DNA of 64,000 nucleotides from Thermoanaerobaculia bacterium (GCA_038245905.1 JBBRRY010000001.1:96001-160000), one strand, 5' to 3'. Shown: positions 8,329 through 49,213, numbered from the stretch's first letter. A program made the numbers and translations. Notes: generated from the sequence alone by a model not told the origin.

Positions 8329-8964
8329 GTGGAGCGGTTTCTCTTCGACGGTCCTGCGCGCGCCGCGCGCACCCTCGTCCTCGCGCACGGCGCGGGAGCG
8401 CCGATGGATTCGCCGTTCATGGACGCCGTGTCCGCCGGAATCGCGTCCGCGGCCTTTCGCGTCGCGCGCTTCGAGTTCCCGTACATGCACGCGCGCCGGG
8501 CCGAGGGCCGCCGCAAGCCCCCCGACCGCGAGCCCGCGCTCCGAGCGGCCTGGCACGAGGCGATCGCGGCCGTCGCGGGGAAGAAGGGTCCGGCGTCGCT
8601 CGTGATTGGCGGCAAATCCATGGGCGGGCGGATCGCGAGCATGGTCGCGGACGAGGCGGGCGTCGCGGGCCTCGTCTGCCTCGGCTACCCGTTCCACCCG
8701 CCCGGGCAGCCGATGAAGCTGCGGGTGGCGCACCTCGAGCACCTGAAAACGCCGACGTTGATCGTTCAGGGGGAGCGGGATGCGTTCGGAACGCGCGCCG
8801 AGATCGCCGACTATTCCCTTTCGAAGAAAATCTCGGTCGTTCTCCTTCCGGACGGCGACCATTCCTTCAAGCCGCGGATTTCTTCGGGGCGAACCTGGGA
8901 GCAAAACCTCTCCGAAGCGGTCGCGCTCGTCACCGGGTTTCTCGAGTCTCTCCGATCCTCATGA
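8329..8964 (+). CDS. Alpha/beta-fold hydrolase (HGAGAPMDS / GGKSMGGR family)
   Basis: LAHGAGAPMDS, GGKSMGGR nucleophile elbow, LGYPFHPPG, DGDHS. Confidence 0.88.
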   Translation: MERFLFDGPARAARTLVLAHGAGAPMDSPFMDAVSAGIASAAFRVARFEFPYMHARRAEGRRKPPDREPALRAAWHEAIAAVAGKKGPASLVIGGKSMGGRIASMVADEAGVAGLVCLGYPFHPPGQPMKLRVAHLEHLKTPTLIVQGERDAFGTRAEIADYSLSKKISVVLLPDGDHSFKPRISSGRTWEQNLSEAVALVTGFLESLRSS

Positions 8965-9898
8965 CCCACGCGCGGCCATCGGGGTAGCCGGCACGATTCG
9001 CGGCGGCGCGGAACCGCCCCGGCGGTTCGAACGGCGGCTCGTCCGTGAGGACGATCGTCCCCCAGTGCATCGCGACGAGAGTCTTCGCGCGGACGTCGCG
9101 GCCGAGCGAGACAGCCTCCTCCGGGTCGAGGTGCACGGCCCGCATGATCGACGCAGGCTCGTAGGCGCCGATCGGCAGGAGGGCGACGTCGAACGGGCCG
9201 TGCGTGCGTCCAAGGTCGCCGAAAACGGGGCCGTAGCCGGTGTCACCGGCGAAGTAGAGGCGGAGGGAGGGCGAGGCGATCGACCAGGAGCACCAGAGCG
9301 TCGCGTTCCGGTCGAACGGCGTCCGGCCGGAGAAGTGGATGGCAGGAAGACAAGAGAGTGAGACGGAAGAGGAAGACGAAGAGGAAGATTTTCCTAGAAG
9401 GGTGCCCTCGCCCCATCCGAGCTCGCGGACGTCCGAGAAGCGCCGCACCGTGAAGAACGATCCCAGCCCCGAAGGCACGATGGCCGCCGGCGCCCTTCCC
9501 ACTTTCAGAGAAATCTTCCTTACGGAGCTCTCATCGAGATGATCGTAGTGATTGTGAGAGACGACAACCGCATCGAGCTCCGGGAGGTCGTCCACGCCGA
9601 GGCCGGGCGGGACATAGCGCTTCGGGCCGAGACCGGGGAGCGGGCTCGCGTAGTCGGACAGGAACGGGTCGGTGAGAATCGTGAAGCCTGCCGTGCGGAT
9701 GAGGAAGCACGCGTGCCCGAGCCACGTGAGACTCTCGGGACCCGCGGAACGCAGAGCGGCAACGGCCTCCGCCCTCGGAAGGACGTGGCCGCCAGGCACG
9801 GCCGGCGGCCGCTGGGCGATGCGGCGCACGAAGAACGGGAAGAAGTCGGACGGGCCCGCGGTCTGTGCCGGGCTGCCCGGAGGATTGCGAAAGCGCAC
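8930..9898 (-). CDS. MBL-fold metallo-hydrolase (NAPE-PLD-like)
   Basis: TWLGHA, SHNHYDHLD, FAGDTGY, LPIGAYEP and MHWGT motifs. GTG start before RFRNP. Confidence 0.88.
   Translation of the reverse strand: MRFRNPPGSPAQTAGPSDFFPFFVRRIAQRPPAVPGGHVLPRAEAVAALRSAGPESLTWLGHACFLIRTAGFTILTDPFLSDYASPLPGLGPKRYVPPGLGVDDLPELDAVVVSHNHYDHLDESSVRKISLKVGRAPAAIVPSGLGSFFTVRRFSDVRELGWGEGTLLGKSSSSSSSSVSLSCLPAIHFSGRTPFDRNATLWCSWSIASPSLRLYFAGDTGYGPVFGDLGRTHGPFDVALLPIGAYEPASIMRAVHLDPEEAVSLGRDVRAKTLVAMHWGTIVLTDEPPFEPPGRFRAAANRAGYPDGRAWVMRIGETRETR
9378..9520. repeat. Convergent pair of the dispersed GAAGATT motif, inside the MBL hydrolase gene
   Basis: + copy 9378-9402 GAAGAGGAAGATTTTCCTAGAAGGG; - copy 9493-9520 AGGAAGATTTCTCTGAAAGTGGGAAGGG. 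Confidence 0.7.
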
Positions 9899-9939
9899 GC
9901 GGCAGGATACCGGCGGCCCCACGGGTTAGCATCCGTTTC

Positions 9940-12256: not shown

Positions 12257-12410
12257 GAGAGAAGATTCCTAGAAGGTGAAGAGAGCAGGGGAGGGCGCCG
12301 AAACAATCGGCGCCTTCCGTGCGTACGGGGACCAAACGACTGATCAACAGGAGGCCCGAATGATGAAAGCGCGCCGCAGTATTCTTACCTTCGCAGGAAT
12401 TCTTTCTCTC
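12257..12410. repeat. Convergent pair of the dispersed GAAGATT motif (osmC-DUF1579 junction)
   Basis: + copy 12257-12285 GAGAGAAGATTCCTAGAAGGTGAAGAGAG (intergenic); degenerate - copy 12382-12410 GAGAGAAAGAATTCCTGCGAAGGTAAGAA. Confidence 0.6.
12291..12317 (+). terminator. GC-rich hairpin downstream of osmC (possible terminator; no clear U-tract)
   Basis: GAGGGCGCCG-AAACAAT-CGGCGCCTTC inverted repeat. Confidence 0.4.
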
Positions 12411-12977
12411 CTGCTCTCTTCAGCCGCCTTTTCCGACGACAAGGCGGCAAGCAAGCCCGCCGCGCCGAACCAGGACGAGATGATGAAGGCCTGGATCGCG
12501 TTCGCGACGCCCGGGGCGTCGCACAAGACGCTCGAGGCGATGGCCGGATCGTGGGACGTGAAGACGACGATGTGGATGGCGCCGGGTGCTCCCCCCCAGG
12601 AGACGCGCGGGACGTCGGAGAACAAGATGATCCTGGGCGGCCGCTACCTCGAGCAGCACTACGAGGGCTCGATGATGGGGCAGCCGTTCAGCGGGATCGG
12701 CGTGACGGGCTTCGACAACTACAAGAAGAAGTTCGTCTCCACATGGGTGGATTCGATGTCGACCGCCGTCATGGTCACGGCGGGGACGTCCGACAAGAGC
12801 GGCAAGGTCATCACGTCCTGGGGCACGATGAACGACGTCTCCGAAAAGAGGGCGATGAAGGTCAAAACAGTTGTCACGTTCGTCGACGCCGACCATCACA
12901 CGTACGACTCGTGGCACACGAATGCCGGCGGCAAATTCGTCAAGGACCTCGAGATCCACTACACGCGAAAAAAGTAG
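12360..12977 (+). CDS. Secreted DUF1579 family protein
   Basis: Signal peptide; PGASHKTLEAMAGSW, GGRYL and G.GVTGFDNYKKKFVSTWVDSMST motifs; GGAGG RBS. Confidence 0.8.
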   Translation: MMKARRSILTFAGILSLLLSSAAFSDDKAASKPAAPNQDEMMKAWIAFATPGASHKTLEAMAGSWDVKTTMWMAPGAPPQETRGTSENKMILGGRYLEQHYEGSMMGQPFSGIGVTGFDNYKKKFVSTWVDSMSTAVMVTAGTSDKSGKVITSWGTMNDVSEKRAMKVKTVVTFVDADHHTYDSWHTNAGGKFVKDLEIHYTRKK

Positions 12978-14702
12978 TCAGAGCCTCTTCAGGGCCTCGA
13001 GCGCCGGCTCGAGCGCTTGCCGCCGCCTGAAGAAGTCGGCCCATGGGTCGCTCTTCTGCAGGCGCGCGGCGAAGTTCCCGATCGTGAAGTCCTCGGCCTG
13101 GAGCGACGGCTTCACCTCGCTCCACGCGAGCGGCGTCGAGACGGGCGCGTGGGGGCGGCGCCTCACGGAGTAGGGCGAAACGACGGTCTGCCCGAACGCG
13201 TTCCGGAAGGAGTCGAGGAAGACGCGCCCCTTGCGGGCCGCGACGCGCATCTCCATCGTCAGGTTCTTCGGCCAGGCCGCCGCGAGACGCGTCCCGAGCG
13301 TCTTCGCGAACCACGTGACCTCCTCGGTGCCGGGGCCGCGCACGATCGGGACGAAGACGTGGAGACCCTTGCCTCCGGAGGTCTTCACATACGAGACGAG
13401 CTCGAGGGCGTCGAGCGCCTGCTTGACCTTCAGGGCGGCGGCCACGGCGTCGGCGATCAGGCCCGAGTCCGGGTCGAGGTCGAAGCAGACCCAGTCGGGC
13501 TTGTCGAGCTCGTCGGCGCGGCTGCCCCAGACGTGAACGGCGATGCACCCGAGGTTCGCGAGCGCGAGCTGCGTCTCGAGCGCCCCGCCCACGACCGTGT
13601 TCGTCACCTTCCGGTCCTTGCCGTGCCGCACGACCACCGTCGGAGTGCCGGGAGGCATGCTGGAGGGCTTCTCTTTCTGGTAGAAGCACTCGCCGCCGAG
13701 CCCGTCCGGGCAGCGCTCGAGGGAGAGCGGCCGGTCCTCGACCCACGGCCTCAGTTTGCCGAACACGTCCGCGTAGAACGCGACGAGATCGCCCTTCGTC
13801 CACCCTTCCTCGGGCCAGAAGACCTTGCGGGCGTTGGAGACAGGGACCGGGAAGACGGGGGAAGAAGAGGAAGATTTCTTAGAAGGTGAAGAGGGGAGGG
13901 GAGCCGCGGGTGCGCGCGTCGACTTCGGGCCACGCGCCGCCGCCGCTTTTCTTCCTTTCAAAGAAATCTTCTCTTCGTGCTCTTCGGACCGGGCCCCGCG
14001 GGGCCGCGAGTGCCAGACCGCGGGCTTCGCCCGCTGCGTGCGCTGGAGGAGCTTCGGGTTTGCGAGGAGCTTCTCGACCTCGGCGACGGGATCGCCCGTC
14101 GAGGCCTTCTCGACGTCGCCGCCCTCGTCGATCGCGATCTGGGTCAGGAGCCGATTTGAGACGACGGAGCGCGGGCGCGTCTCGGCCACGTCCTCGTCGG
14201 ACGCGAAGTCGTCGCGGTGCTTGATGAGGAGCCACGAGGGCTTCGACGAGCCGCCCCAGCCCTTCGTACGGACGAGGACCCAGGACCCCTTCAGCTTCTC
14301 GCCGTGGAGCGTGAACTTGAGATCTCCCTTCTTTAGCGCGGCGTCGACGTCAGGTGACTCCGGTGTCCAGGTGCCGCGATCCCAGACCATGACCGTCCCG
14401 CCGCCGTATTCGGCGACGGGGATGATCCCCTCGAAGGCGGCGTACTCCTGGGGGTGGTCCTCGACGTGGGAGGCCATGCGCTTGACGGCGGGATCGAGCG
14501 ACGGTCCCTTCGGTATGGCCCACGAGAGGAGCACTCCGTTCCACTCGAGTCGGAAGTCGTAGTGGAGGGCCGTCGCCCGGTGCTTCTGGACGACGTAGGC
14601 GAGAACCCGGCGCGCCGCGCGGCGCTTCGCGGGTGTCTTCGCGCCCGCGGGCTCCTTCGTCACGCCAAAGCGGCGTTTCCGGCGATATTCCTCGAGGGCC
14701 AT
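12978..14702 (-). CDS. ligD: LigD-family NHEJ protein with 3'-phosphoesterase and primase-polymerase domains only (no ligase domain)
   Basis: PE domain (LEEYRRKR, VVQKHRATALHYDFRLE, SWAIPKGPS, EDHP); POL domain (RCPDG, FYQK, FDLDP, KTSGGKGLHV). No KxDG ligase motif seen. Confidence 0.85.
   Translation of the reverse strand: MALEEYRRKRRFGVTKEPAGAKTPAKRRAARRVLAYVVQKHRATALHYDFRLEWNGVLLSWAIPKGPSLDPAVKRMASHVEDHPQEYAAFEGIIPVAEYGGGTVMVWDRGTWTPESPDVDAALKKGDLKFTLHGEKLKGSWVLVRTKGWGGSSKPSWLLIKHRDDFASDEDVAETRPRSVVSNRLLTQIAIDEGGDVEKASTGDPVAEVEKLLANPKLLQRTQRAKPAVWHSRPRGARSEEHEEKISLKGRKAAAARGPKSTRAPAAPLPSSPSKKSSSSSPVFPVPVSNARKVFWPEEGWTKGDLVAFYADVFGKLRPWVEDRPLSLERCPDGLGGECFYQKEKPSSMPPGTPTVVVRHGKDRKVTNTVVGGALETQLALANLGCIAVHVWGSRADELDKPDWVCFDLDPDSGLIADAVAAALKVKQALDALELVSYVKTSGGKGLHVFVPIVRGPGTEEVTWFAKTLGTRLAAAWPKNLTMEMRVAARKGRVFLDSFRNAFGQTVVSPYSVRRRPHAPVSTPLAWSEVKPSLQAEDFTIGNFAARLQKSDPWADFFRRRQALEPALEALKRL
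13857..13976. repeat. Convergent pair of the dispersed GAAGATT motif, in the ligD linker
   Basis: + copy GAAGAAGAGGAAGATTTCTTAGAAGGTGAAGAGGGG (13861-13896); - copy GAAGAGAAGATTTCTTTGAAAGGAAGAAAAG (13946-13976). Confidence 0.8.
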
Positions 14703-16430: not shown

Positions 16431-19064
16431 ATGAGGAGCGCCATGAATCTCGCCACTCGTGTCCTCGCGACCCTCCTGTCTATCGCGCCCGCTCTCGCGC
16501 ACTCAGCCTCGCCGCCCACTCCCTCGGAGTTTCTCGGGATCAAGGTAGGCGCTGATCGGACGCTCGCGGACTACCGGCAGATCTCGTCTTACTTTCGCGA
16601 GCTCGAGAAGGCCTCGCCGCGCGTGAAGATCCAGAACCTCGGAAAGACGACGCTCGGGGAGGACATGCTTCTCGCCGTCATCACCAGCGAGGAGAACCAG
16701 CGAAACCTCCCGCGGCTTCAGGAGATCTCGCGCAAGCTTTCCGATCCGCGCGGGCTCTCGGATTCCGATGTCGCCGCCCTCACGAATGAGGGCAAGGTCG
16801 TCCTCCTCGTGACGTGCAACATCCACGCGAGCGAGATCGGCTCAACGCAGATGGCGATGGAGTGGGCGCACGCGCTGGCGACGTCGGACGACCAGGAGAC
16901 GAAGCGTCGCCTCGCGAACGTGGTGGTCCTCCTCCTGCCGTCCCTGAATCCCGACGGCCAGATCATGGAGACCGACTGGTATCGCAAGAACCTCGGAACG
17001 AAATACGAAGGGGGCCGGCTTCCCTGGCTGTACCACCACTACGTCGGGCACGACAACAACCGCGACTGGTACATGCTGACGCAGAAAGAGACGAAGGCCC
17101 TCAACCGGGCCGTGTACAAGGAGTGGCTCCCCCAGGTGTGGCTCGACGAGCACCAGATGGGAATCAACGGGCCGCGCATCTTCATGCCGCCCTATGCCGA
17201 ACCGGTCTCGTCCGACGTGCACCCCCTCGTTTGGCGCGACGTCAACCTGATCGGCGCGGCGATGGCTCTCCGGCTCGAACAGAGGGAGAAGTCGGGAGTC
17301 ATCTACGGCTATTCCTTCGACGCCTACTGGCCCGGCGGCACGAAGAACACGGGCTGGTGGAAAAACATCGCGGGACTTCTCACCGAAGTCGCGTCCGTGC
17401 GGCTGGCGTCCCCGGTTTACCTTCCGCTTGGCGAGCTCGCGGGGGGTCGGAAGGGCCTCATCGACTACCGCGCGCAGACGAATTTCCCGAACCCCTGGCC
17501 GGGCGGCTGGTGGCGGCTTCGCGACATCATGGATTACGAACGAATCGCCTCGGACGCGATCCTCGAGACCTGTGCAGACCGCCGCGAAGACTTCCTGAAG
17601 GACATGGCGACGCGGGCCCGCGCGAGCATCGCGGCCTTCCGTCCGGACGACGCCTACCGCATCCCGATGGGGCAAGGTCAGCGGGATCCGGCGACCGCCC
17701 TGGTTCTCGCCCGGATCATGGGCGAGCACGGAGTCGACGTGAGGTCCGGCCCGAACGGGGACGCGTTCATTCCCCTCGCACAGCCCTACGGAAAATTCGT
17801 ACGGGAGATGATGGAACCGCAGCGGTATCCCGAAGTGAAGCTGGTAGCCGGGAAGGACATTGTTCGTCCCTATGACGTCGCCACGTGGACGCTGCCCGCG
17901 ATGATGGGCGTGAGGGTCGAGCGCGCGACGCTGCCGGCCGGACTGACCGAATTCGATCCAGCAGGCGGAGGAGGAAGAGGAAAAGAGGGAGAGATTCTGA
18001 GAAGGGGGGCGCCGGCCGCCGCACTTCTCCCGGGAAGTCCCGAGAACGCAAAGGTCGTGAACGCAGCGTTGAAAGCGGGCGCCGTGGTCTCGATTCTGCG
18101 AGCGCCCGCGCCCTTCGAGGGCAGGGACTGGCCCGCGGGAACGATCATTCTCGGAAAATCCGCGCTCGATTCCGCGGAGGCGTCCCTCGTCGCGACGCGC
18201 GTCCCCCTCTTTCCTTTCAAAGAAATCCCCTCTTCTCCCTCTCTCTCTCGCCTGCGCGCCCCGCGCGTCGGCCTCTACAAGTCGTTTACGTCTTCCATGG
18301 ACGAGGGGTGGACGCGCTGGCTCCTCGAGCAATACGGCTTCGCGCCGGTTTCGCTCGAGAACAAGGCCGTTCGTGCGGGTTCCCTGGCTGAGAGGTTCGA
18401 CGTCATCGTCCTTCCGGACATGGAGGCCGAGGTCATCGCGACCGGCCGCCCGCGTCGCGAGGAAGGGGAGTCCCGCTACATCCCGGAGCTTCCGCCGGGA
18501 TACCAGGGAGGCCTCGAGAAGGAGGGCGCGAAGGCCCTGCGGGACTTCGTCGAGGCAGGGGGGACGCTCGTCGCGTTCGACTCCGCGACGGACTACGTCG
18601 CGAGCGAATTCTCGATTCCCGTCCGAAACACGCTCGCGCGCGCCAAGCGCGAGGAGTTTTTCTGCCCGGGTTCTCTCCTGCGCGTCCACGTGGACGCGTT
18701 GCACCCCGTGACATGGGGTCTGCCTTCCGAGGTGGCTGTGTTCCTGGACGACGCGACCGCCTTGCAAACGTCGCTTCCGGGAGCCGAGCTCGAGAGGTGG
18801 GTTCTCGCGTCTTACCCGGACGACGAGCGCGACGTACTCGTCTCCGGCTGGATTCATGGCGGAGACCGCCTCACGCGGCGCGCGGCGGCGGTCGCGACGA
18901 CGTTCGGCAAGGGGAAGCTCGTGCTCCTCGGCTTCCGGCCGCAGCACCGTGCCCAGACACACGCGACGTTCCCGTTTCTCTTCAATGCACTCTACTGGTC
19001 GGTCGAGGGACCGCCTCCCGGCGCGAAAAAAGACGGCGTGAAAGCTTCACCCGGAAGGGGGTGA
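16431..19064 (+). CDS. Secreted M14 family zinc carboxypeptidase with a C-terminal GATase1-like domain
   Basis: NIHASE (HxxE), NPDG, HDNNRD and DEHQMG motifs; C-terminal MDEGWTRW..FDVIVLP; signal peptide. Start may be 16443. Confidence 0.87.
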   Translation: MRSAMNLATRVLATLLSIAPALAHSASPPTPSEFLGIKVGADRTLADYRQISSYFRELEKASPRVKIQNLGKTTLGEDMLLAVITSEENQRNLPRLQEISRKLSDPRGLSDSDVAALTNEGKVVLLVTCNIHASEIGSTQMAMEWAHALATSDDQETKRRLANVVVLLLPSLNPDGQIMETDWYRKNLGTKYEGGRLPWLYHHYVGHDNNRDWYMLTQKETKALNRAVYKEWLPQVWLDEHQMGINGPRIFMPPYAEPVSSDVHPLVWRDVNLIGAAMALRLEQREKSGVIYGYSFDAYWPGGTKNTGWWKNIAGLLTEVASVRLASPVYLPLGELAGGRKGLIDYRAQTNFPNPWPGGWWRLRDIMDYERIASDAILETCADRREDFLKDMATRARASIAAFRPDDAYRIPMGQGQRDPATALVLARIMGEHGVDVRSGPNGDAFIPLAQPYGKFVREMMEPQRYPEVKLVAGKDIVRPYDVATWTLPAMMGVRVERATLPAGLTEFDPAGGGGRGKEGEILRRGAPAAALLPGSPENAKVVNAALKAGAVVSILRAPAPFEGRDWPAGTIILGKSALDSAEASLVATRVPLFPFKEIPSSPSLSRLRAPRVGLYKSFTSSMDEGWTRWLLEQYGFAPVSLENKAVRAGSLAERFDVIVLPDMEAEVIATGRPRREEGESRYIPELPPGYQGGLEKEGAKALRDFVEAGGTLVAFDSATDYVASEFSIPVRNTLARAKREEFFCPGSLLRVHVDALHPVTWGLPSEVAVFLDDATALQTSLPGAELERWVLASYPDDERDVLVSGWIHGGDRLTRRAAAVATTFGKGKLVLLGFRPQHRAQTHATFPFLFNALYWSVEGPPPGAKKDGVKASPGRG
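17967..18249. repeat. Convergent cluster of the dispersed GAAGATT motif, in the M14 peptidase gene
   Basis: + copy GAGGGAGAGATTCTGAGAAGGGGGG (about 17985-18009); - copies GGATTTTCCGAGAATG (about 18146-18161) and GAGAAGAGGGGATTTCTTTGAAAGGAAAGAGG (about 18206-18237). Confidence 0.7.
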
Positions 19065-19095
19065 GCCGCCGGAGATCCAGGGATCGCGTGCTAGC

Positions 19096-21747: not shown

Positions 21748-21757
21748 GAGGCCGGCT
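21737..21757. terminator. Hairpin between convergent genes (possible bidirectional terminator)
   Basis: AGCCGGCCT-GAG-AGGCCGGCT perfect 9-bp inverted repeat spanning the stop at 21747. Confidence 0.4.
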
Positions 21758-21778
21758 CCGGCCTGCGCGTCGTTCCGG

Positions 21779-23785
<2,007 letters not shown>

Positions 23786-31477: not shown

Positions 31478-31504
31478 GAAGTCGCACGGCGGCGCACCGG
31501 GGTC

Positions 31505-32731: not shown

Positions 32732-32737
32732 GGCCCG

Positions 32738-35018: not shown

Positions 35019-35027
35019 GGGAGGATT

Positions 35028-37985
35028 CTACTCCCCGACGACGCGCCGGCAGCGCGCGCAGATTCCGTCGTCTCCGGGCTCGACGTCCTTCCGGACCTGC
35101 CAGCAGCGCGGGCACTTCAGGCCATCGGCGGGGCGGACCGCGAAGATCTCCGTCCCGCCCTCCCGCACGACCGATGGCGTTCCGAAGAGGTCCGCGAGTT
35201 TTTCTTCTGAAAGGGAAAGAATGGCGAGCGCCTCGTCGACCTCGCCGCCCCGGCCCACGACGGGCGTCGCCTGAGAGGCGGAGCCGACCTTTCCTTCCCG
35301 GCGAAGGGGTTCGAGCTGCGCGAGGAAGTTCGCTCGGAGCGCGAGCATCGTCCCCCAGGCCTTCCTCTCATTCACAGAAATCTCCGGTAGCCGGAGGTCG
35401 CTCCAGCTCTTCAGGAAGAGCGCGGACGAATCCCCCGCGTACCCTGGGACGGCCTCCCAGATCTCCTCGGCCGTGAACGGGCAGATCGGCGAGAGCGCAA
35501 GTGCGATCGTCTCGACGAGTTTCCAGGCGGCCGTCTGGGCGGAGCGCCGGACGGAATCGTTCGCCGCGAGGACGTAGAAGGCGTCCTTGCGGACGTCGCA
35601 CCAGAAGGCCGAGAGGTCGATCGTGACGAGGTCCAGGAGCCGGCGCGCGACCGCATGGAACTCGTAGCGCGCGTACGCGTCGCGCGCCTCGGCCGCGAAC
35701 CGGGCCGCGGCGTCGAGCACCCAGCGGTCGAGCGGCTCCATGCTCGCGGCCGGCACCGCATCCGTCGCCGGATCAAAATCGAAGAGGTTCGAGAGGAGGA
35801 AGCGCGCCGTGTTCCGGATCTTCCGGTAGGCCTCGGCGGTGCGCAGCAGGATCTCCTTCGAGAGCGGGTCGTCGCTCGTGTAGTCGAGCGAGGCGACCCA
35901 GAGGCGGATCACGTCCGCGCCGTCCGTCTTGAGGAGCTCCTGCGGCTCGATCGTATTGCCGAGAGACTTCGACATTTTTCGGCCGTCGCCCGCGACGACG
36001 AATCCATGGGTAAGAACGACGTCGTACGGCGCGCGGCCGGTCAGCGCGACGGACGTGAGGAGCGACGACTGGAACCACCCGCGGTGCTGGTCGTGCCCTT
36101 CGAGGTACATGACCGGCACCGGCGGCTGAGAAAGGTACGGATCGGCGAGGCCGTAGTCGCCCGAACGCAACACCGCGGCGTGCGAAACGCCGGAGTCGAA
36201 CCATACGTCGAGGATATCCTTGAGCTTCTCGAACGACGTTCCGCCGCAGCGCGAGCACGCTGGAGAAACAGAAGAGGAAGATTTGCTTAGGAAGTAAGAG
36301 GGAGGGAACGCATCGTCATACCAGGCATTCGCACCGTGCTCTCGGAAAGTACCTCTTACACCTTCAAAGAAATCTTCTCTTTCTTTCTTGTCTTTGTCGG
36401 GTATGTCGCCTACGACCCGCGGGAAGTGGCTGACGACGCCCTTCTCCTTGCAGTCGACGCACCGGAGAAACGTGATCGGCGACCCCCAGCGGCGCTGGCG
36501 GGAGATCGTCCACTCCAGACGGTTGTCCACCATGGCACCGATGCGGTTCTCGCTGTACGACGGGATCCACTCAACATGGCCGCGGATCTCCGACATCGCC
36601 GTCTCGCGGAGCGCCCCGAGGTCGATGAACCATTGATGCGTCGCCCGGAAGATGACCGGGTTCTTGCAGCGCCAGCAATGGGGATAGGAGTGAGGGGATT
36701 TCTTCGAGCTGAGAAGAAGAGCGCCAGACGCTTCTCCCTTCGTCAACTCTTCGAGAACTGCCGCATTCGCGTCGTCGGCAGGCGTCTTCGGTGTGACGAC
36801 GCGCTTTCCCCGAAACTGCTCGGGGGCGTTCGCGTCGAAGTACCCGCCCTCGTCGACCGGGCAGAGCGCCGGGTCGTCTACCTTCTTACCGGCCCGTTTG
36901 ACGACCTCGTAGTCGTCGCGGCCGTGGCCGGGCGCCGTGTGGACGAGGCCCGTGCCGTCCGACGTCGAGACGTGCTCGCCGAGGAGGAACCCGAAATTGT
37001 CGAATGGATCGGACGCGAACGGGCGGGCGTATCGCAATGCGGGCGTTGCCGCGGCAATCGATTCGCCGCTCTTTTTCGAAAGGGGAAGAGGGGTGGCGTC
37101 GCGCCATCCCAGCGCGGCCGTCACTTGCGGCACGAGCGCGTGGGCGACGAGGTAGGCGGCGCCCGGCTCGGATTCCCTTCTCAGAAGAACATATTCGATC
37201 TTCGGACCCAGCGCGATGGCCCTGTTGGCGGGCAACGTCCACGGCGTCGTCGTCCAGACGAGGGCGTAGACGCGCGGCGATCCGACGGCCTCCAGCGCGT
37301 CGCCCCACGTACCCCTCGAAGAAATCTCTTCCACAGGCATTCCGACGTAGATCGACCAGTCCGTCTTGTCTTCGTACTCGATCTCCGCCTCGGCGAGCGC
37401 CGTGCGGTCGTGGACGCACCAGAGGACGGCCTTGAAGCCGAACGAGACGAGGCCCTTCTCGACGAACCGGCCGAACGCCCGCGCGATCTCGGACTGGTAC
37501 GAGAAGTCCATCGTCTTGTACGGTGACTGCCAGGCCCCGAGGACGCCGAGGCGCATGAAGTCGGTCCGCTGGACGTCGATCCACTTCTCCGCGTACGCCC
37601 GGCAGGCGTCGCGGACCGCGACGTCGGTCATCGCGCGCTTCTTCGGGCCCAGCTCCTTGTCGACCTTGATCTCGATCGGCAGGCCGTGGCAGTCCCAGCC
37701 CGGCACATAGGGCGCGTCGAAGCCGGCGAGCGTTTTCGAGCGGACGACGAGATCCTTGAGGATTTTGTTCATCGCCGTCCCCATGTGAATCCGGCCGTTC
37801 GCGTAGGGCGGTCCGTCGTGCAGGAGAAACTGCGGGGCGCCCTTGCGGGCGGCGCGGATGCGGCCGTAGAGGTCCCCGTCCACCCAGCGCGCGAGTCGCG
37901 CGGGCTCCCGCTTCGGGAGGTCCGCTCTCATGGGGAACTCCGTCTGCGGGAGCAGGAGGGTGGATTTCCAGTCGCGTCCGCTCAT
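35028..37985 (-). CDS. ileS: Isoleucine--tRNA ligase (type 1)
   Basis: [47 protein letters not shown], and a C-terminal CPRC..CARC Zn finger. ATG at 37985. Confidence 0.96.
35196..35385. repeat. Degenerate convergent pair of the GAAGATT motif (ileS 3' part)
   Basis: + GAGTTTTTCTTCTGAAAGGGAAAGA (about 35196-35220); - GGAGATTTCTGTGAATGAGAGGAAG (about 35361-35385). Confidence 0.45.
36271..36395. repeat. Convergent pair of the dispersed GAAGATT motif, in ileS
   Basis: + GAAGAGGAAGATTTGCTTAGGAAGTAAGAGGGAGGG (36271-36306); - AAGAAAGAAAGAGAAGATTTCTTTGAAGGTGTAAGAGG (36352-36389). Confidence 0.8.
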
Positions 37986-39026: not shown

Positions 39027-39883
39027 CGAAAGAGATTCACCGCATCGGCCTCATCGGAGGATCGGGCCTGTATTCGCTGCCCGGTCTCGAGGTCACCCGC
39101 GAGATCAGGCTTCGGACTCCCTTCGGCTCCCCGTCCGACTCTTTCATTCTAGGAAATCTCTCTTCGGTCCCCGTGGCGTTCCTCGCCCGCCACGGCCGCC
39201 ATCACTTGCTCCTGCCGGGTGAGGTCAACTACCGCGCGAACATCTGGGGCTTCCGGAAGCTTGGCTGCTCGTGGCTGATCTCGGCTTCCGCCTGCGGCTC
39301 GATGAAGGAGGCGTACAAGCCGGCCGACATCGTCCTTCCGGACCAGTTCATCGACCTGACGAAGCACCGGGTCTCGACGTTTTTCGGCGGCGGCTGCGTG
39401 GGTCACGTCTCGTTCGCATACCCGGTCTCGACCGTCCTGCTCGATGCCCTCGCAGCGGCCGCAAAAGTTGAGGGCGCGGTATGTCACGGCGGCGGGACGT
39501 ACCTTTGCATCGAAGGACCCCAGTTTTCCACGAAGGCCGAGTCGTCGCTCTACCGCTCGTGGGGTGTCGACGTGATCGGCATGACGAACGCCACCGAAGC
39601 AAAGCTCTGCCGGGAGGCCGGAATCGGCTACGCCTCCATGGCCCTCGTCACCGACTATGACTGCTGGCACGAGGAGGAGGCCGCCGTCTCGGTGGAGGCC
39701 GTCCTCGCCGTCCTCAAGCAGAACGCGGGCACCGCGAACCGCGTCCTCGCGAACGCCGTGCGGCACCTCGATCCCGATCGGCCGAGCGACTGTGCGGATG
39801 CTCTCGCGTGGGCCGTCCTCACGGCGGAAGAACGCATTTTACCCGCCGCCGCGAGGCGCCTCGCGCTGTTCCTGAAGAAATGA
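39023..39883 (+). CDS. mtnP: S-methyl-5'-thioadenosine phosphorylase
   Basis: [38 protein letters not shown] and TDYDCW motifs. Confidence 0.92.
39138..39165 (-). repeat. Single copy of the GAAGATT motif, in mtnP
   Basis: Minus strand reads GAAGAGAGATTTCCTAGAATGAAAGAG. Confidence 0.65.
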
Positions 39884-42829: not shown

Positions 42830-45382
42830 ATGAGCAGCACGACGACGAAGAGCGACGAAATCCACCGGATCGAAGCCAAGTGGCGCGAGCGCTGGGAAGC
42901 GGATCGCGCCGCCTTCGTGGACACGGGAAAGCCCGCGGGCGAAGGAACGTACCTCCTCGTCATGCTCCCTTACCCGTCGGGCGACCGCCTGCACGTCGGG
43001 CACGCCCGGACGTACTTTCTGACCGACGCTCTCCACCGCTTTCTCAGGCAGACCGGCGTGACCGTGTTCTGTCCCATGGGCTGGGACGCCTTTGGCCTTC
43101 CCGCGGAGAACTACGCGATCCAGAAGGGGATTCATCCCCGCATCTCCACGCTTGCGAACATCGCGGCGATGAAGGAACAGTTCCGGGCGTGGGGAGTTCT
43201 CTACGACTGGACGAAGGAAGTCACGACCTGCGAGCCCGAGTACTACCGCTGGAACCAGTGGTTCTTCCTCAGGCTCCTCGAGAAGGGTCTCGCGGTCCGG
43301 AAGAAATCGGCGGTCAACTGGTGCCCCTCGTGCCTCACGGTTCTCGCGAACGAGCAGGCCGAGGGGGGCGTCTGCGAACGCTGCAAGACGCCGGTCGTCC
43401 AGCGCGAGCTGGAGCAGTGGTTCCTGAAGATCACCGACTACGCCGAGCGGCTCCTGGAAGGCCTCGACACGCTCGGCGCATGGCCCGAGAAAGTCGTCAC
43501 GATGCAGCGCAACTGGATCGGCAAGTCCACGGGCGCCGATCTCGACTTCGCGATTCCGTCGCTCGGGGAGACGGTGCGCGTCTTCACGACGCGTCCGGAC
43601 ACCGTGTTCGGCGCGACGGCGCTCATCCTTGCCCCCGAGCACGCGCTCGTGCCGCGCCTGCTCGACAAGCACCCGAAGCGCGCCGAGCTCCAGGCGTGGG
43701 TCAAGTCCGTACGCGACCAGGAGCGCATCGCTCGCGAGGCTGAGGGCGCCGAGAAGGACGGCCGGGACACGGGCGTCAAGGCGGTCAACCCGTTCACCGG
43801 GCAGGAGATTCCTGTATGGATCGCGAACTTCGTGATCGCGAGCTACGGCACAGGCGCCCTCATGGCTGTCCCGGCGCACGACACGCGCGACTTCGAGTTC
43901 GCGAAGAAGTACGACATTCCGATCGTGAAGGTCATCGAGGAGGAGAGGAAAGAAGAAGAGGAAGAAGATTTGCTTAGAAGGGAGGAGGGGGAGGGGCGCG
44001 CGCCGGGAGCGGAAAGCCTCGGCGGGTCGACTGCCTCCGCTTATACGGGCGAAGGCCGCCTCATCGCCTCCGGACCATTCTCAGCAAAATCTTCCTCTTC
44101 CGCTCGCGAGCTGATTGCGGCGGAAGCGGCTCGCCGAGGGATCGGCGGGCCGCGCGTGCGCTACCGGTTGCGCGACTGGCTCATTTCCCGCCAGCGCTAC
44201 TGGGGCACCCCGATCCCCATGATCCACTGCGAGAAGGACGGCTGGCTCCCCGTCCCCGAGAAGGACCTGCCCGTGGTCCTGCCCGCCGACGCGCCGTTCA
44301 CGGGCACGGGAGGCAACCCGCTGGAGAAAGTCGCCTCGTTCGTGAACACGACGTGCCCCCGATGCTCCGGCCCCGCGCGCCGCGAGACGGACACGATGGA
44401 CACCTTCGTGGACTCGTCCTGGTACTACCTGAGGTACCTCGACCCGAAAAACGCCCGGGCGCCGTTCGACCCCGCCATCGCGAAGGAGTGGGCGCCCGTC
44501 GACCAGTACATCGGCGGGATCGAGCACGCGATCCTGCATCTCCTGTACGCGCGCTTTTTCGCGCGCATCCTGAAGGACCTTGGCCTCGTGACGTTCGAGG
44601 AGCCGTTTTCCGCGCTCTTCAACCAGGGCATGATCACGCGCCAGTCCCCGACCGGGCGCGTCGAGAAGATGTCCAAGTCGCGCGGCAATGCGGTGTCGCT
44701 CGACCCGCTCATCGCCGAGAAGGGTGCCGACGCCGTCCGCGCGTTCATCCTCTTCCTCGGACCGCCGGAGAAGGACTCCGAGTGGAGCGACGAGGGGATC
44801 AGCGGCCCCGAGCGTTTCCTCTGGCGGGTGCGGGCCACAGTCGACCGGTTCCTTCAGGCAGGCTCCGATCCGAAGGGCCAGCCTGCGAAGGTCGACACGC
44901 CCGCGGCGCGCGCGCGCCATATGGCTGTGAAGAGGGTCACGGAGGACTTCCGGGCGTTTTCTTTCCACACGGCCGTGGCGCATCTCATGGAATTCCACAA
45001 CCATGCGACGAGTCTCGCCGGCGACGCCGACGCGGACGTGGGGGAGACCGCGACGACCCTCCGGACGCTCGTCACCCTGCTCCATCCCATTGCGCCTCAT
45101 CTGTCCGAGGAGCTTCACGAGCGGATGGGCGGCGCGAAGAGCCTCCTCTTGTCGGGCTGGCCGGCCTTCGATGCGGCGCTCGCGGTGGAGGAATTCGCGT
45201 CGATCGCCGTGCAGATTTCCGGGAAGGTCCGGGCGGAGATCAGGCTCCGACGAGGATCTTCTGAGAAGGAAGCCGTGACCGAGGCGGAATCGAACGGGAT
45301 CATCGTGAAGTGGCTCGACGGCAAGCAACGTGTGAAGACCATCTGGGTGCAGGACCGCCTGCTGAACATCGTGGTGAAGTGA
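42830..45382 (+). CDS. leuS: Leucine--tRNA ligase
   Basis: [47 protein letters not shown] and KMSKS motifs. Confidence 0.97.
43937..44101. repeat. Convergent pair of the dispersed GAAGATT motif, in leuS
   Basis: + GAGGAGGAGAGGAAAGAAGAAGAGGAAGAAGATTTGCTTAGAAGGGAGGAGGGGGAGGGG (43937-43996); - GGAAGAGGAAGATTTTGCTGAGAATGG (44075-44101). Confidence 0.8.
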
Positions 45383-45900: not shown

Positions 45901-45918
45901 CCGGCGAGCCGCCCGCGT

Positions 45919-46197
45919 TTACTTTTTCGCGACGGACTTCTTCGCCTTGTTCACGGTCTTCGAAATGCGTGATTTCAGGCGGGATGCTGTCTTCCTGTGG
46001 AGGACGCCCTTGCGGACGGCGACGTCGAGGTCGGAGACTGCGTTCGAGAGGAGATTGCCTGCTTTCTCGGCCTCGGTCTCCGCCGTCTTGCGCAGGTTCT
46101 TCACGAGATTACGGACCTTCGTCACGACGGAGCGGTTGCGGACCCTGCGGCGATCGCTCTGCGCGGCGCGTTTCTTGGCTTGCTTGGTGTTGGCCAT
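45919..46197 (-). CDS. rpsT: 30S ribosomal protein S20
   Basis: MANTKQAKKR...RN...KGVLHRKTASRLKSR. Confidence 0.96.
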   Translation of the reverse strand: MANTKQAKKRAAQSDRRRVRNRSVVTKVRNLVKNLRKTAETEAEKAGNLLSNAVSDLDVAVRKGVLHRKTASRLKSRISKTVNKAKKSVAKK

Positions 46198-46221
46198 GGG
46201 AGTTCGGGTGTACCTTTCTGT

Positions 46222-47124
46222 TCAGCGGGAATCGCCGCCGAGGGACTTGAGGCGCTGGCGCGCGCTCTTGGCCTCGTCGGAGCCAGGAAACTGGTTGACG
46301 ACAAAATTCAACTCGACCATGCCCTGAGCCTTCTCTCCCAGTTCGAGGTGGGCGATGCCCTTCTTGAGGTGGGCGGCCGGGGCCTTGTCGCTCTGGGGGT
46401 AGGAGCGGAAGAGCTTGTCGAACGCGGCGATCGCTTCCCGCGGCTTCTTCTGTGCCGACCAGCATTCGCCGGCCCAGTAGAGGGCGTCATCCGACAGGTC
46501 GGTGTGCGGGAACTTATCGGCGTAATCCTCGAAACCCTGCCGCGAGAGGTCGTATCGGCCCCGCTGGTAGTCGGCCGTCGCCTGAGCGAAGAGGTCGGCG
46601 GGCGTGATGCCGCCGCCGCGCGGCGCGGTGCCTGCTCCGGGCGCGGCAGCGAGACCCGCACCCACAGGAGGCGTTCCGCCGAGCGCCGAAGCGGCCGAGG
46701 GAGCGGAGGTGGGCGCGGAGGGGTTGCCCACGGTGGTACCCGCGGGCGCGGTCGAGGTATGCGTCTGCGATTCGGCGATCTGCTGCGAGAGCTGAGTCAG
46801 GCGCCGGTTGGCGTCCTCGAGCTTGCCCGCGAGAGCCTGCATCTCGCGCGTCAAGTCGTCAAATTTCGTTCCGAGATCGGCATTCGAGCGCAGCAGAGTC
46901 TCCGCCTGTCTGGCGAGCCTCTCGCTCAGCTTCGCGACCTCGTCCTTGGAAGACGATTGCTTGGCGACCACGTCGACTTCCTTCTCGACTGTCGAAAGGT
47001 GCTTGTGAAGGCCGTCGATGTCGCTCCCGCTGACGCACCCGACGGCCGCCGCGAGAAACCCCGCGGCGGCGACGGAACGAATGGCGCGCGAGGCGCGCTC
47101 CCCGTTCACTTCCTCCCCGTTCAT
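46222..47124 (-). CDS. cpoB: Tol-Pal system protein CpoB/YbgF (coiled coil plus TPR)
   Basis: Lipoprotein-like signal, coiled coil, TPRs (DDALYWAGE, YPQSDKAPAA); lies downstream of pal. Confidence 0.85.
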   Translation of the reverse strand: MNGEEVNGERASRAIRSVAAAGFLAAAVGCVSGSDIDGLHKHLSTVEKEVDVVAKQSSSKDEVAKLSERLARQAETLLRSNADLGTKFDDLTREMQALAGKLEDANRRLTQLSQQIAESQTHTSTAPAGTTVGNPSAPTSAPSAASALGGTPPVGAGLAAAPGAGTAPRGGGITPADLFAQATADYQRGRYDLSRQGFEDYADKFPHTDLSDDALYWAGECWSAQKKPREAIAAFDKLFRSYPQSDKAPAAHLKKGIAHLELGEKAQGMVELNFVVNQFPGSDEAKSARQRLKSLGGDSR

Positions 47125-47675
47125 TTACCGGTGACGACGAAGTGGGCGCGGCGGTTCTTCTGCCACGAGTCTTCGTCGTGTCCGGTGGCGAAGGGACGCT
47201 CTTTGCCGTACGAAACGGTCTTGACCCGGGACGCGTCGACGCCGAGGGAGACGAGGTAGTCCTTCGCGGCGTTCGCGCGGCGGTCGCCGAGGGCGAGGTT
47301 GTACTGCGCCGTGCCGCGATCGTCGGTGTGGCCTTCAATCGTGAACTGAACGGAGGGGTACTTCTTCAGCCAGGTCGCGTTCGTGGCGAGGACGTCGCGA
47401 GAGTCGCCACGGATGTCGGCCTTGTCGTAGTCGAAGAACGCGGGCTTGAGCATGCCGCTCAGCTCGTTGATCGACCTCCCCGAAATGTCCGCATCAATCT
47501 TCGGCGTCGGCTTCGGCGTGGGCGTGGCGACCGGCTCGACCGTGACGACGGTGGGCGTCGAAACGGGCGCGGGCGTCGGCGCGGGCATCGGCGCGGCGGG
47601 TGGTTTGCTGGAACACGCCACGACGAATGCGACGGCAGCAAGGGTGATGGAACCGGCCTTGAGGGAATGCTTCAT
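47121..47675 (-). CDS. pal: Peptidoglycan-associated lipoprotein Pal
   Basis: Lipobox VVAC; FFDYDKA, IEGHTDDRG, YNLALGDRRA, SYGKERP and NRRAHF motifs. Confidence 0.94.
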   Translation of the reverse strand: MKHSLKAGSITLAAVAFVVACSSKPPAAPMPAPTPAPVSTPTVVTVEPVATPTPKPTPKIDADISGRSINELSGMLKPAFFDYDKADIRGDSRDVLATNATWLKKYPSVQFTIEGHTDDRGTAQYNLALGDRRANAAKDYLVSLGVDASRVKTVSYGKERPFATGHDEDSWQKNRRAHFVVTGK

Positions 47676-47737
47676 GGATCGAGCCTCCGTTAGTTGCAGG
47701 ATGGGGGGAAAGCCGGGCGGCGCTCCCCGTGGGGTCA

Positions 47738-49144
47738 CTATTCTAGCGTCTTGACCCACGAGGGGGAATAATTGTTCCCGGAAGACGTCACGTTGCGCGC
47801 CGTTCCACTTCCGTCGGCGTTTCCGACGGCAATCTGGGTCGAGCTGCCGCGCTGCACTTCCCAGGCGATCTTCGAGCCGTCCGGGGACCACGTGGGCCCT
47901 TCGTGGGCGCCGGGCCCGCTGGAAATCTGCACCGTCCGGCCTGAGGAGAGATCCATGACGCAGATCTGAAAATCGCCCTCGTTCCGGCAGGCGAACGCAA
48001 GGCGCCCGCCGTCCGGGGAGAACGCGGCCTCGTCGTTCCAGTTTCCGGCCAACGTCACGCGCCGGACGTTCGCGCCCTCGAGGTCCATCATGAAGATCTG
48101 CGGCGAGCCCTGCCGATTGGACGTGAACGCGAGCTCCCGGCCGTTCGGGGACCAGCGGGGCGTGGAGTCGATCGCCGCGTTCTCGGTGAGGCGCTTCAGA
48201 GAGGAGCCGTCCGTCTGGACGGTGAAGATCTCCGTGTTACCCCGCACGCTGCCACAGAACGCAATCGTCCTGCCGTCGGGGGAGAACGACGGGGACGCAT
48301 TGAGCTGCGTCGGGACCGGAATGGGCCGCTTGTCGGTCCCGTCCTTGCCGATGAGCCACAGACCCGGCGTGTCCTTCTCGTAGGACTGGTAGACGATCTT
48401 CGTCCCGTCGGGCGACCAGTCGGGAGCGAGCGACAGCGTGCGCGAGCTCGTGATGCGCCGTTGGTTCTCACCGTCGAAGTCCATCGTGTAGATCTCCTTG
48501 ACGCGCGGCTCGTCGCGGTCGGAGGAGAAGGCGAGCTTCGTGAGGAACGGCCCGGGCTTGCCGGTGAACTGGCGCACGAGGTCGCTCGCCAGCGTATGGG
48601 CAATGCGGCGCGCGGCGCGGTTCTCGCCCGTGTACTTCTTGCTCAGGATGGACCTGAGCGTGCCGAGGTCCCACAGCAGCGCCTCGACGATCACGTTCCC
48701 GCCGTCCGGCGACATGTGCGTGTCGAGGAGGAACTGGGCAGACGTGGCTTTCCACGCGTCGCCCTCTTCGCGGTTCTGCGGAGGGCGCATCGCCTTCGGG
48801 TAGAGCGTCGGATCGGCCACGACGAAGACCCCCGAACCCGCGAGGTCGTCGGACAGCGTCGTGTAGAACGGATCGACGGCCCTCGTCTGGAGATCCGTCT
48901 GGAGCGGCGCGATCGTCATCGGGATCGCGAGCGGGCGGCGCGCGTTCGAGCTGCCCGTGATCGTGATGTCGATGTTGGAGGCCTGCGGGAAACCGGAGGG
49001 AGTCGAGGATGTCGAGGACGTCGCCGGGGCGGGCGCCGAGGGCCGAGTCGCCGACTTCGGCGCCTGCCCGAGGACGGGAGCGGCACAGACGAGAGCAGCC
49101 GCAAGCATCAGCGCGCCGGCTCTCCTGAATCCCTCGAAGAACAT
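47738..49144 (-). CDS. tolB: Tol-Pal beta-propeller protein TolB
   Basis: Signal peptide, TolB-N (RRIAH), multiple PD40 repeats (PDWSPDG, PSFSPDG, PRWSPNG). ATG 49144 preferred over GTG 49216. Confidence 0.88.
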   Translation of the reverse strand: MFFEGFRRAGALMLAAALVCAAPVLGQAPKSATRPSAPAPATSSTSSTPSGFPQASNIDITITGSSNARRPLAIPMTIAPLQTDLQTRAVDPFYTTLSDDLAGSGVFVVADPTLYPKAMRPPQNREEGDAWKATSAQFLLDTHMSPDGGNVIVEALLWDLGTLRSILSKKYTGENRAARRIAHTLASDLVRQFTGKPGPFLTKLAFSSDRDEPRVKEIYTMDFDGENQRRITSSRTLSLAPDWSPDGTKIVYQSYEKDTPGLWLIGKDGTDKRPIPVPTQLNASPSFSPDGRTIAFCGSVRGNTEIFTVQTDGSSLKRLTENAAIDSTPRWSPNGRELAFTSNRQGSPQIFMMDLEGANVRRVTLAGNWNDEAAFSPDGGRLAFACRNEGDFQICVMDLSSGRTVQISSGPGAHEGPTWSPDGSKIAWEVQRGSSTQIAVGNADGSGTARNVTSSGNNYSPSWVKTLE

Positions 49145-49213
49145 CTTCTCTCTCTGTCTTACCTTCAAAGTAATCTCTTCTTCTCTTTCTTCTTCTCTCA
49201 ACAACTTCCCCTT
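49131..49213 (-). repeat. Tandem copies of the GAAGATT motif in a purine tract between tolA and tolB
   Basis: Minus strand reads AGGGGAAGTTGTTGAGAGAAGAAGAAAGAGAAGAAGAGATTACTTTGAAGGTAAGACAGAGAGAGAAGATGTTCTTCGAGGG. Confidence 0.7.

Follow-up and report, generated by a model that had tools for sequence, protein, structure and literature searches.

The subject of this report is a DNA motif, here called the arm, which recurs in a 64,000-nucleotide (nt) stretch from a Thermoanaerobaculia bacterium (the window, G000:C1:96001-160000, where G000 is the source genome and C1 one of its contigs). The motif is real, lies far above chance and is dense in one Acidobacteriota genus only. Judged from orthologous sequences, point substitutions create arms in place while protein length stays constant, and purine hexamers expand at a later stage; the rare A/T-ending codons of the arms (ATT, TCT, AGA, GTA) are held in place by something acting on DNA. 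The motif is independent of transposon, RAYT, serine invertase and RNA pairing, and by its facing-pair rule and its excess near the replication terminus it matches no described system among those compared. The explanation that we prefer, with a probability of about 0.35, is that the arm is the recognition sequence of a putative DNA-binding factor and would have been spread by a drive resembling that of uptake sequences.

Anatomy, pairing and range of the arm

The source genome is a 3.80-Mb assembly of 113 contigs (67.8% GC, 96.4% complete), and window coordinates correspond to C1 coordinates minus 96000. An earlier note on this DNA, made from the sequence alone, had listed 13 clear and 9 weak copies of a purine-rich motif in the window. 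An nhmmer profile trained on the 13 clear copies and run over the whole genome (E<10) gives 275 matches, 140 on the plus strand and 135 on the minus strand, with 14 inside the window. All 13 clear copies are recovered, which is circular since the same copies built the profile, and independent support comes from the genome-wide and cross-genome counts. Of the weak copies only the one at 12382-12416 returns (10.2 bits); those at 35196, 36692, 45252, 8812, 18146, 33212, 35361 and 37312 have no match at E<10 and are taken as chance partial matches. The empty stretches reported by the same note are confirmed, with 0 matches in window 1-9371, 18236-36266 and 49201-64000, and its statement that copies lie mostly within genes agrees with the gene map described below. 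Its picture was right as to the existence of the copies and missed their pair architecture, the ~45-nt arm with its purine flanks, the restriction to a genus, the origin in place and the maintenance of A/T positions. The possibility that the islands are assembly or polishing artefacts, which it had raised, is dismissed because 29 genomes, each assembled separately, have the motif at orthologous positions.

The arm is asymmetric and ~45 nt long, and consists of a (GAR)n tract followed by GAAGATTTCTTWGAAGG and then by (T)GAAGAGGGG. A logo of 109 strict sites, defined below, displays a purine tract (70-90% purine) at about positions -20 to -1, the core at 0 to 14, T or G at +15 and a purine/G-rich tail (RAAGAGGGG...) at about +16 to +30. 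The whole can be described as repeated GAAGAR hexamers, one unit of which is flipped (TTTCTT), and is nearly a mirror repeat; the only dyad embedded in it is TTCnnnGAA. Its outer boundary is a purine tract of variable length, with no defined terminus.

Chance does not account for these copies. The strict 15-mer AGATTTCTTWGAAGG, with at most one mismatch, occurs 109 times in the genome (57 forward, 52 reverse), versus 0 times for the reversed pattern. Against a synonymous-codon-shuffled background, the comparison that the earlier note had proposed, enrichment is plain: 69 strict sites lie within 3179 predicted genes, versus 0-2 per shuffle in 10 within-gene shuffles. In the window alone, GAAGATT occurs 14 times against 5.6 +/- 2.6 over 100 shuffles, and no shuffle reaches 14. 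Overall density amounts to one arm per 14 kb (275 arms over 3.80 Mb) and one strict site per 35 kb.

Arms follow a strict rule of orientation. Neighbouring matches less than 500 bp apart comprise 49 convergent pairs (+ then -), 4 divergent and 13 same-strand ones (binomial p 7e-11), and a convergent bias is likewise seen in G003 and G011, as read by eye among the strict matches listed. Convergent inverted pairs span 80-460 bp, with an inner distance of mostly 0-150 nt; those of the window are 9372/9524, 13861/13982, 17977/18235, 36267/36385 and 43954/44105. About two-thirds of arms are unpaired singles, found on either strand. Short pairs (103-135 nt) fold into long hairpins, and the fit of an arm to the consensus does not depend on its partner. 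One pair encloses, at G000:C25:29,600-29,650, a different repeat of ~47 nt, foreign to the arm family, which recurs with 78-90% identity at four other places (C11, C20, C24).

The range of the motif is narrow. All 29 genomes of genus g1, to which G000 belongs, contain it, with 40-216 strict copies each, as do 6 of 8 genomes of the sister genus g11, with 2-17 copies. Counts fall to 0-2 in 26 genomes of eight other genera of the family and to 0-1 in 12 genomes of two other families of the order, and the reversed-pattern controls give 0-1 in all genomes. Among the outgroups, G019 and G024 are unpublished genomes; they supply 2 of the 12 outgroup rows in the set of copy counts and 2 rows in the MBL set, and the statements still hold when both are left aside. 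The nearest named record is a Thermoanaerobaculia metagenome-assembled genome with a LeuRS identity of 81%, in agreement with the Acidobacteriota affiliation assumed in the earlier note. Among congeners copy number varies 5-fold, arms being gained and lost locus by locus. The 15-mer matches viral contigs only by chance, in AT-rich phages (80 kept loci, median GC 0.35, none above 0.60), and nhmmer yields 4 weak matches of at most 13.4 bits. In the open-access literature, motif strings returned one chance match, in a human-cell paper, and Thermoanaerobaculia combined with repeat, uptake or matS topics returned nothing relevant.

Origin in place and maintenance as DNA

Successive stages of arm formation can be observed at corresponding residues of one and the same enzyme. 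In the MBL-fold protein, the stretch from HxHxDH to AGDT measures 97 amino acids (aa), or 96 in one case, and has no arms in the 10 outgroup rows recovered; it is also 97 aa long, armless and GC-rich in G017, G009 and G003. A half-formed core is found at 97 aa in G016 (GAAGGACTTTCTTCGAAAGAAAGG) and at 96 aa in G013, both cores are found at 98 aa in G015 and G008, and in 8 further congeners, including G000, the stretch reaches 102-115 aa, the surplus being (TCTTCC)n read as poly-Ser. In the window this (TCTTCC/TCTTCG)n tract adjoins the arm at 9290-9372; it counts 0 to ~10 units among congeners, which gives the same enzyme poly-Ser segments of very unequal length. The right arm of LeuRS can be followed at constant length from PFTGLPSGKG, the GC-rich and motif-free form of g11, through PFTGLSSDEG, PFTGMSSSPA and PFSEMSSSLA to the form of G000.

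Comparisons with solved homologs point in the same direction. The arm cores of HisA align nearly ungapped (+1 and +3 aa), that of DHPS covers the conserved EVSxEEE stretch with 7 additional aa outside the core, and in RsmH the upstream arm is ungapped and the downstream arm adds 8 aa. Length gains of 5-21 aa go with several arms. The left loop of LeuRS carries 0, 1, 2 tandem or up to 3 arms according to congener and extends from 79 to 138 aa, a gain of 15-50 aa over armless forms. Three genomes, G016 and G003 among them, have both arms in the LigD linker, G001 and G015 have one, and G004 lacks both cores. That arms were gained and not lost is suggested by the outgroups; a LeuRS C-terminal tree built by a quick method resolves the genus poorly. 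Since absent, half-formed, complete and expanded stages are visible, the origin of the motif and its cost to the proteome can be tested by comparative genomics alone.

Maintenance was assessed on codons ending in A or T in G000, by asking whether other species keep the same third base. In the MBL gene (9 species), the base is kept in 72 of 93 comparisons in arms (77%) versus 39 of 176 in flanks (22%; Fisher p 1e-18), and in the right arm of LeuRS (16 species) 71 of 90 (79%) versus 62 of 195 (32%; Fisher p 8e-14), with p-values that overstate the evidence because related genomes are not independent. The GC content of third positions is 0.41 in arms and 0.86 in flanks. This retention across species argues that arms are actively maintained as DNA.

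Host genes and chromosomal position

Gene context was established with a codon log-odds model trained on 1024 long open reading frames, from which a greedy selection retained 3224 genes covering 92% of the genome, a map that probably over-calls. This map places 188 of 275 arms within genes and the other 87 between them, a 4-fold intergenic excess over random positions (421 of 5000 intergenic). Of the 49 pairs, 35 are inside a single predicted gene, and for 31 of these 35 the host protein belongs to a Pfam family. The hosts include DnaE, LeuRS, IleRS, CysRS, a LigD-like protein, alanine racemase, DHPS, HisA and RsmH, together with ABC-F, MeaB, M1 and M14 peptidases and transporters. In a separate, flank-based classification 22 of 49 pairs are in frame in one gene, random segments giving 40.5%. 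Arms overwrite residues within the domains of DnaE, HisA, DHPS, RsmH and aminoacyl-tRNA synthetases, which implies a cost to the host proteins that a selected site could avoid.

A motif acting at the protein level was rejected, as the arms are translated in several frames, at least 2 sense and 3 antisense (ISLKG, DFLEG, SKKSSS, FKEI, LRRNL); a promoter, terminator or Shine-Dalgarno function was likewise rejected, as arms fall inside domains of real genes. In housekeeping genes arms produce low-complexity inserts (poly-Ser or Glu/Lys-rich) and islands of rare codons, which will mislead annotation, codon-based tests of gene transfer and alignments in this lineage.

Table 1. Arm matches in the window (coordinates from its first nucleotide; scores in nhmmer bits)
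Position	Strand	Feature and place	Score	Encoded residues and remarks
9372..9406	+	Arm, downstream (antisense) in MBL-fold/NAPE-PLD-like gene 8930-9898(-)	20.4	...LLGKSSSSSSSS; 5-aa gain relative to 4qn9; host domain Lactamase_B_2
9485..9524	-	Arm, upstream (sense) in MBL-fold gene 8930-9898(-)	24.7	SVRKISLKVGR; gapless alignment to human NAPE-PLD 4qn9; in-place series across 16 congeners
12258..12288	+	Intergenic arm, 4 nt past the stop of OsmC-like gene 11828-12253	9.3	~70 nt ahead of DUF1579 gene 12360-12977 (Pfam)
12382..12416	-	Weak arm-like match, doubtful, in the DUF1579 gene, within the signal-peptide codons	10.2	
13861..13899	+	Arm, antisense in LigD-like gene 12978-14702(-)	20.8	PSSPSKKSSSSS; in the linker between phosphoesterase and primase-polymerase domains
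13938..13982	-	Arm, sense in LigD-like gene 12978-14702(-)	22.2	EEKISLKGRK; with 13861-13899, near-perfect hairpin of 122 nt, fold -82.6 kcal/mol
17977..18020	+	Arm, sense in M14-like peptidase gene 16443-19064(+)	9.9	
18199..18235	-	Arm, antisense in M14-like peptidase gene 16443-19064(+)	16.8	LFPFKEIPSS
36267..36302	+	Arm, antisense in IleRS gene 35028-37985(-)	13.0	Aligned to 8c9e
36348..36385	-	Arm, sense in IleRS gene 35028-37985(-)	19.0	Core over residues aligned to 8c9e; outer purine tract within a 17-aa gain
39131..39170	-	Single arm, antisense in PNP_UDP_1 (MTA-phosphorylase-like) gene 39023-39883(+) (Pfam)	15.4	
43954..43991	+	Arm, sense in LeuRS gene 42830-45382(+), editing-domain loop	15.6	~21-aa gain relative to T. 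thermophilus LeuRS
44065..44105	-	Arm, antisense in LeuRS gene 42830-45382(+)	15.6	PFSAKSSSS; ungapped vs 1h3n, no length change
49131..49200	-	Intergenic arm and second degenerate core overlapping a start codon, between TonB_C gene 49213-49992(-) and TolB-like gene 47738-49144(-) (Pfam)	10.6 at 49154	

Among the hosts in Table 1, the MTA-phosphorylase-like protein would have its arm over a conserved SDxxILG stretch of the human enzyme, at unchanged length. In the LigD-like protein Pfam (E<=1e-5) reports 3'-phosphoesterase and primase-polymerase domains and no ligase domain. A search of 5 congeners gave no match to the M14-like gene at the syntenic position, and its flanks are adjacent in G016; it may be an accessory gene, yet it carries an arm pair.

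The cumulative GC skew of C1 peaks at ~145-150 kb (window ~50 kb), being positive before and negative after, and this switch, at about window 44,000-54,000, places the window in the replication-terminus region. A candidate dif site, GGTCCGATAA-GATTTA-TTATGTTAAAT, is located outside the window at ~C1:218.17 kb (218,160-218,200); it is the only exact match of the genome to ATAA-N6-TTATGT, presumably resembles the dif of E. coli and has an arm-like core, GGGGTTTTCTTAGAAAGG, ~75 nt off. Arms are unevenly distributed over the contigs of G000, with 48 observed versus 25.1 expected on C1, 24 versus 10.3 on C4, 17 versus 6.1 on C14 and only 2 versus 12.2 on C3, which carries dnaA. In G011 (C1, 3,878,252 bp; C2, 871,796 bp) dnaA is at C2:326 kb, so that the opposite point is at 1.83 or 2.05 Mb of C1. 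The interval of +/-0.5 Mb around 2.05 Mb makes up 21% of the genome and holds 18 of the 36 exact-core matches on which this count is based (all strict matches number 132), or 15 of 33 without three tandem-family repeats. The contrast is weaker in G003, with 33 matches on the contig syntenic with the window versus 19 on the longer dnaA contig. Altogether, arm density is ~2-fold higher around the terminus, with sites nearly everywhere on the chromosome.

Two stretches of G011 (C1:2.199-2.209 Mb and 2.299-2.320 Mb) contain same-strand, same-variant cores 2-8 kb apart. These runs suggest a tandemly repeated gene family bearing the motif, which accounts for the uneven strand counts of G011 (49 versus 83).

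Polar functions were considered and rejected. Single arms number 51 on the leading and 45 on the lagging strand, which is unlike a motif of the FtsK-orienting polar sequence (KOPS) or Chi type. Terminus inverted repeats are known in B. subtilis as TerI/TerII; for the arms, pairs acting as polar fork barriers were discarded because single arms have no strand preference and ~50 two-way traps would block replication. In arm-masked G000 the most strand-skewed octamers are CGGGGGAG, GCGGGGGA and GGGGGAGG, with 81-83% on the leading strand as defined by GC skew. They are a candidate KOPS-like polar motif and resemble the G-rich inner tail of the arm.

Explanations and comparison with known systems

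In the explanation that we prefer, a putative sequence-specific factor of one Thermoanaerobaculia genus, and partly of its sister genus, would read the arms, with no carriage by a transposon. Point substitutions would shift native DNA, coding or not, toward the consensus, and the flanking purine hexamers (GAAGAG / TCTTCC) would then expand by slippage. Better matches would be preferentially transmitted or retained, and the motif would in this way accumulate and be held against GC-biased codon pressure. Such a preference would be a molecular drive as for DNA uptake sequences, through biased uptake and/or biased recombination of motif-bearing kin DNA, and would be indifferent to the cost for host proteins until this cost became severe; the factor appears to read two facing arms. 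That the factor exists, and that transmission bias and not a benefit to the cell keeps the arms, is what we infer. A drive of this kind is suggested by the high turnover of arms, their 5-fold copy variation, their near-random spread relative to genes and the overwriting of conserved residues. The arm motif shares with DNA uptake sequences its over-representation on both strands in one lineage, and its origin in place by point substitution followed by conservation. Its distribution is also like theirs: strict sites divide evenly over the strands (57/52), and 188/275 arms are intragenic, uptake sequences being 35-65% in open reading frames (PMC2817400). ComEC and DprA are present, which is weak evidence for a drive as most bacteria have both.

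Several points weigh against an uptake-like drive. In the passages of PMC2817400 and PMC2397512 drawn on here, uptake sequences are described as ~1-1.5 kb apart (PMC2397512), whereas arms are found once per 14 kb and strict sites once per 35 kb, that is, 10-50 times more sparsely. The motif, with a 17-nt core and ~45 nt in all, is far longer than uptake cores of 9-12 nt. Convergent pairs 30-300 nt apart (49 versus 4), even inside genes, are not predicted by uptake; the paired DNA uptake sequences (DUS) described in the same passages are at most 21 nt apart and act as terminators, one DUS being sufficient (PMC2397512). Neither are the ~2-fold terminus excess and the dearth near dnaA predicted. 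Uptake sequences are reported in those passages as absent from recently acquired genes (PMC2817400, PMC2397512), while the M14-like gene, missing at the syntenic place in 5 congeners, still carries a pair. Finally, the factor, the uptake bias and competence itself are only putative in this uncultured lineage, and the direction of change is read from outgroups and from poorly resolved single-gene trees, kin not being independent. Facing pairs, low density, motif length and terminus excess fit a drive poorly, which brings a chromosome organiser close behind.

Such an organiser, possible but doubtful in our estimate, would be a lineage-specific protein for which the arms are selected sites, functionally analogous to the sites of matS/MatP, Noc or SlmA. 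Its more detailed form, in which a two-site protein would bind facing arms and bridge or loop the intervening ~100-150 bp, with a preference for the terminus half, is to be held just as tentatively. The ~50 pairs and the singles of each genome are within the range of Noc-binding sites (NBS) and SlmA-binding sites (SBS); the excess near the terminus (C1, C3 and G011, above), the strict convergent orientation, the independent fit of each arm to the consensus, maintenance at the DNA level and the fact that such sites evolve in place inside genes are all in favour of an organiser. A selected site would hardly be expected to overwrite conserved residues of essential enzymes despite neutral positions nearby, nor to vary 5-fold in copy number with locus-specific turnover among congeners. 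The terminus bias is only ~2-fold, and weaker still in G003, the arm is long and asymmetric and not a short dyad, and no candidate protein emerged from the analysis. The earlier note had conceived a matS- or Noc-like site: copy number and the ~2-fold density near the terminus agree with it, and a short dyad with a dimeric protein does not describe the arm. Its broader view of a chromosome-level cis-element is upheld, the motif being a DNA-level feature and neither a protein- nor an RNA-level one. The arms might also represent a new class of element, a paired asymmetric signal of ~45 nt imposed by a putative lineage-specific DNA-handling machine on its own chromosome, a view that we regard as tentative. 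This machine might be neither a transposase nor a known uptake receptor, and might be a terminus organiser or a processing or repair system reading two facing arms. If so, its pressure would overwrite conserved residues of DnaE, aminoacyl-tRNA synthetases, DHPS and HisA and hold rare A/T codons genus-wide.

The remaining explanations are all improbable. A non-autonomous mobile palindromic element, akin to a miniature inverted-repeat transposable element (MITE), a Rickettsia palindromic element (RPE) or a doublet of repetitive extragenic palindromes (REPIN), could have been inserted in frame and then decayed; this would account for the hairpins of 103-135-nt pairs, the 15-50 aa added by the tandem and paired arms of the LeuRS loop, the 5-21 aa gains elsewhere and the in-frame location inside genes, as in the RPEs of Rickettsia. 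It is at odds with the DNA between the arms: those interiors of the 49 pairs that measure 30 nt or more, compared with the genome by blastn, give only 12 short non-self matches, 4 of them from one locus. The interiors are native coding sequence peculiar to each locus (LeuRS, IleRS, DnaE, HisA, DHPS and others), and align with LeuRS of T. thermophilus (1h3n), IleRS (8c9e) and NAPE-PLD (4qn9). Except in the left loop of LeuRS, arm cores replace native residues without change of length (MBL, LeuRS right arm, HisA, DHPS, RsmH); the outer end is a variable purine tract instead of a defined terminus, A/T synonymous sites are kept and not decaying, and no high-GC viral contig matches (0 of 80 loci above 60% GC). 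The Y1/RAYT transposase family (PF01797), found in 6 of 14 named genomes by the same search, has 0 matches in G000. An RPE-like in-frame MITE, our initial hypothesis, was dropped because of the unique native interiors and the constant length of arm cores, and the footprint of a tiny insertion element conceived in the earlier note fails in the same way, with native DNA between arms that arise in place. No more credible is a mutational or structural by-product peculiar to the lineage, without any trans-acting reader, arising by purine-hexamer slippage and quasi-palindrome template switching or from H-DNA mirror repeats. The arm does resemble a GAAGAR array with one flipped unit, nearly a mirror repeat, and (TCTTCC)n varies from 0 to ~10 units among orthologs, but one and the same core of 15-17 nt is shared by ~100 unrelated loci and by 29 genomes. 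Arms resemble their partners no more closely than they resemble other arms (identity 0.405 versus 0.411; 3716 of 5000 permutations reach the observed value), so that the second arm was not copied from the first, and retention of A/T synonymous sites demands continued pressure. Substrates of a site-specific recombinase (intragenic invertons), where the segment between facing arms would flip and switch off or recode the host gene, are highly improbable. As this would require, inverted repeats 80-460 bp apart share one consensus across many loci, and a single predicted gene holds both arms in 35 of 49 pairs; serine recombinases (Resolvase), the class searched for, are lacking in G000 and in 10 of 18 congeners. 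The interiors are native to essential enzymes, a flip would create a stop in several arms (in the upstream arm of LigD, AAG ATT TCT TTG would become ...TAG), and every ortholog examined has the native orientation. We give the least credit of all to an RNA-level element, in which arms would pair in the mRNA as a long stem read by an RNase or another RNA-binding factor. Whole pairs do fold better than shuffles (mean z -3.2, 47 pairs), but their interiors are no more structured than shuffles (mean z -0.49), the partner identities just given reveal no covariation within pairs, and differences in the sense transcript are as often of A·C type (111) as compatible with G·U (105; p=0.73, 35 pairs). Moreover, the ~2/3 of arms that are unpaired occur on either strand and no Rfam family corresponds; in the window Rfam gives nothing at the gathering score and one sub-threshold miRNA match at 13884-13969 (21.3 bits versus 63.5). 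An attC-like folded site was rejected because interiors are unstructured.

Comparison with known systems brings out what is particular to the arms, which, as the earlier note had supposed, correspond to no described repeat: they have no Rfam family, and no description was found in the open-access literature. RPEs are insertions of palindromic units of ~100-150 bp with a conserved full-length sequence, located in frame in essential genes and translated; here, in contrast, copies have only the arms in common, with native gene sequence in the middle, and residues are replaced at constant length. Repetitive extragenic palindromes and REPINs are hairpin-forming inverted doublets of a short repeat, present in hundreds of copies and mobilised by RAYT, whereas arms are mostly intragenic (188/275), originate in place and are accompanied by no Y1/RAYT gene in G000. 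Intragenic invertons likewise consist of inverted repeats flanking a short coding segment; the arms differ by one consensus for ~50 loci, by the lack of a conserved serine invertase and of orientation variants among orthologs, and by the fact that a flip would destroy essential enzymes. The sites of MatP (matS), Noc (NBS) and SlmA (SBS) are short dyads bound by dimers, in tens of copies, often intragenic and evolved in place. The arms resemble them in copy number, frequent location in genes, evolution in place and uneven spread between origin and terminus, and differ in being long and asymmetric, in forming facing pairs with variable spacing, in their high turnover and in a terminus bias of only ~2-fold.

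Outside the Pasteurellaceae and Neisseriaceae, we know of no well-documented long DNA motif driven into coding sequence in place. With the uptake signal sequences (USS) of the former and the DUS of the latter, in so far as the passages drawn on describe them, the arms have in common that they are lineage-specific, on both strands, within and between genes and in inverted pairs (PMC2817400, PMC2397512), and that they arise and persist in place at permissive positions, where they impose odd peptides and codons; the lineage of the arms belongs to a different phylum. As the facing-pair rule and the terminus excess are matched by none of these systems, the protein that reads the arms could reveal a new specificity of DNA uptake, a chromosome-organising factor or a DNA-processing activity.

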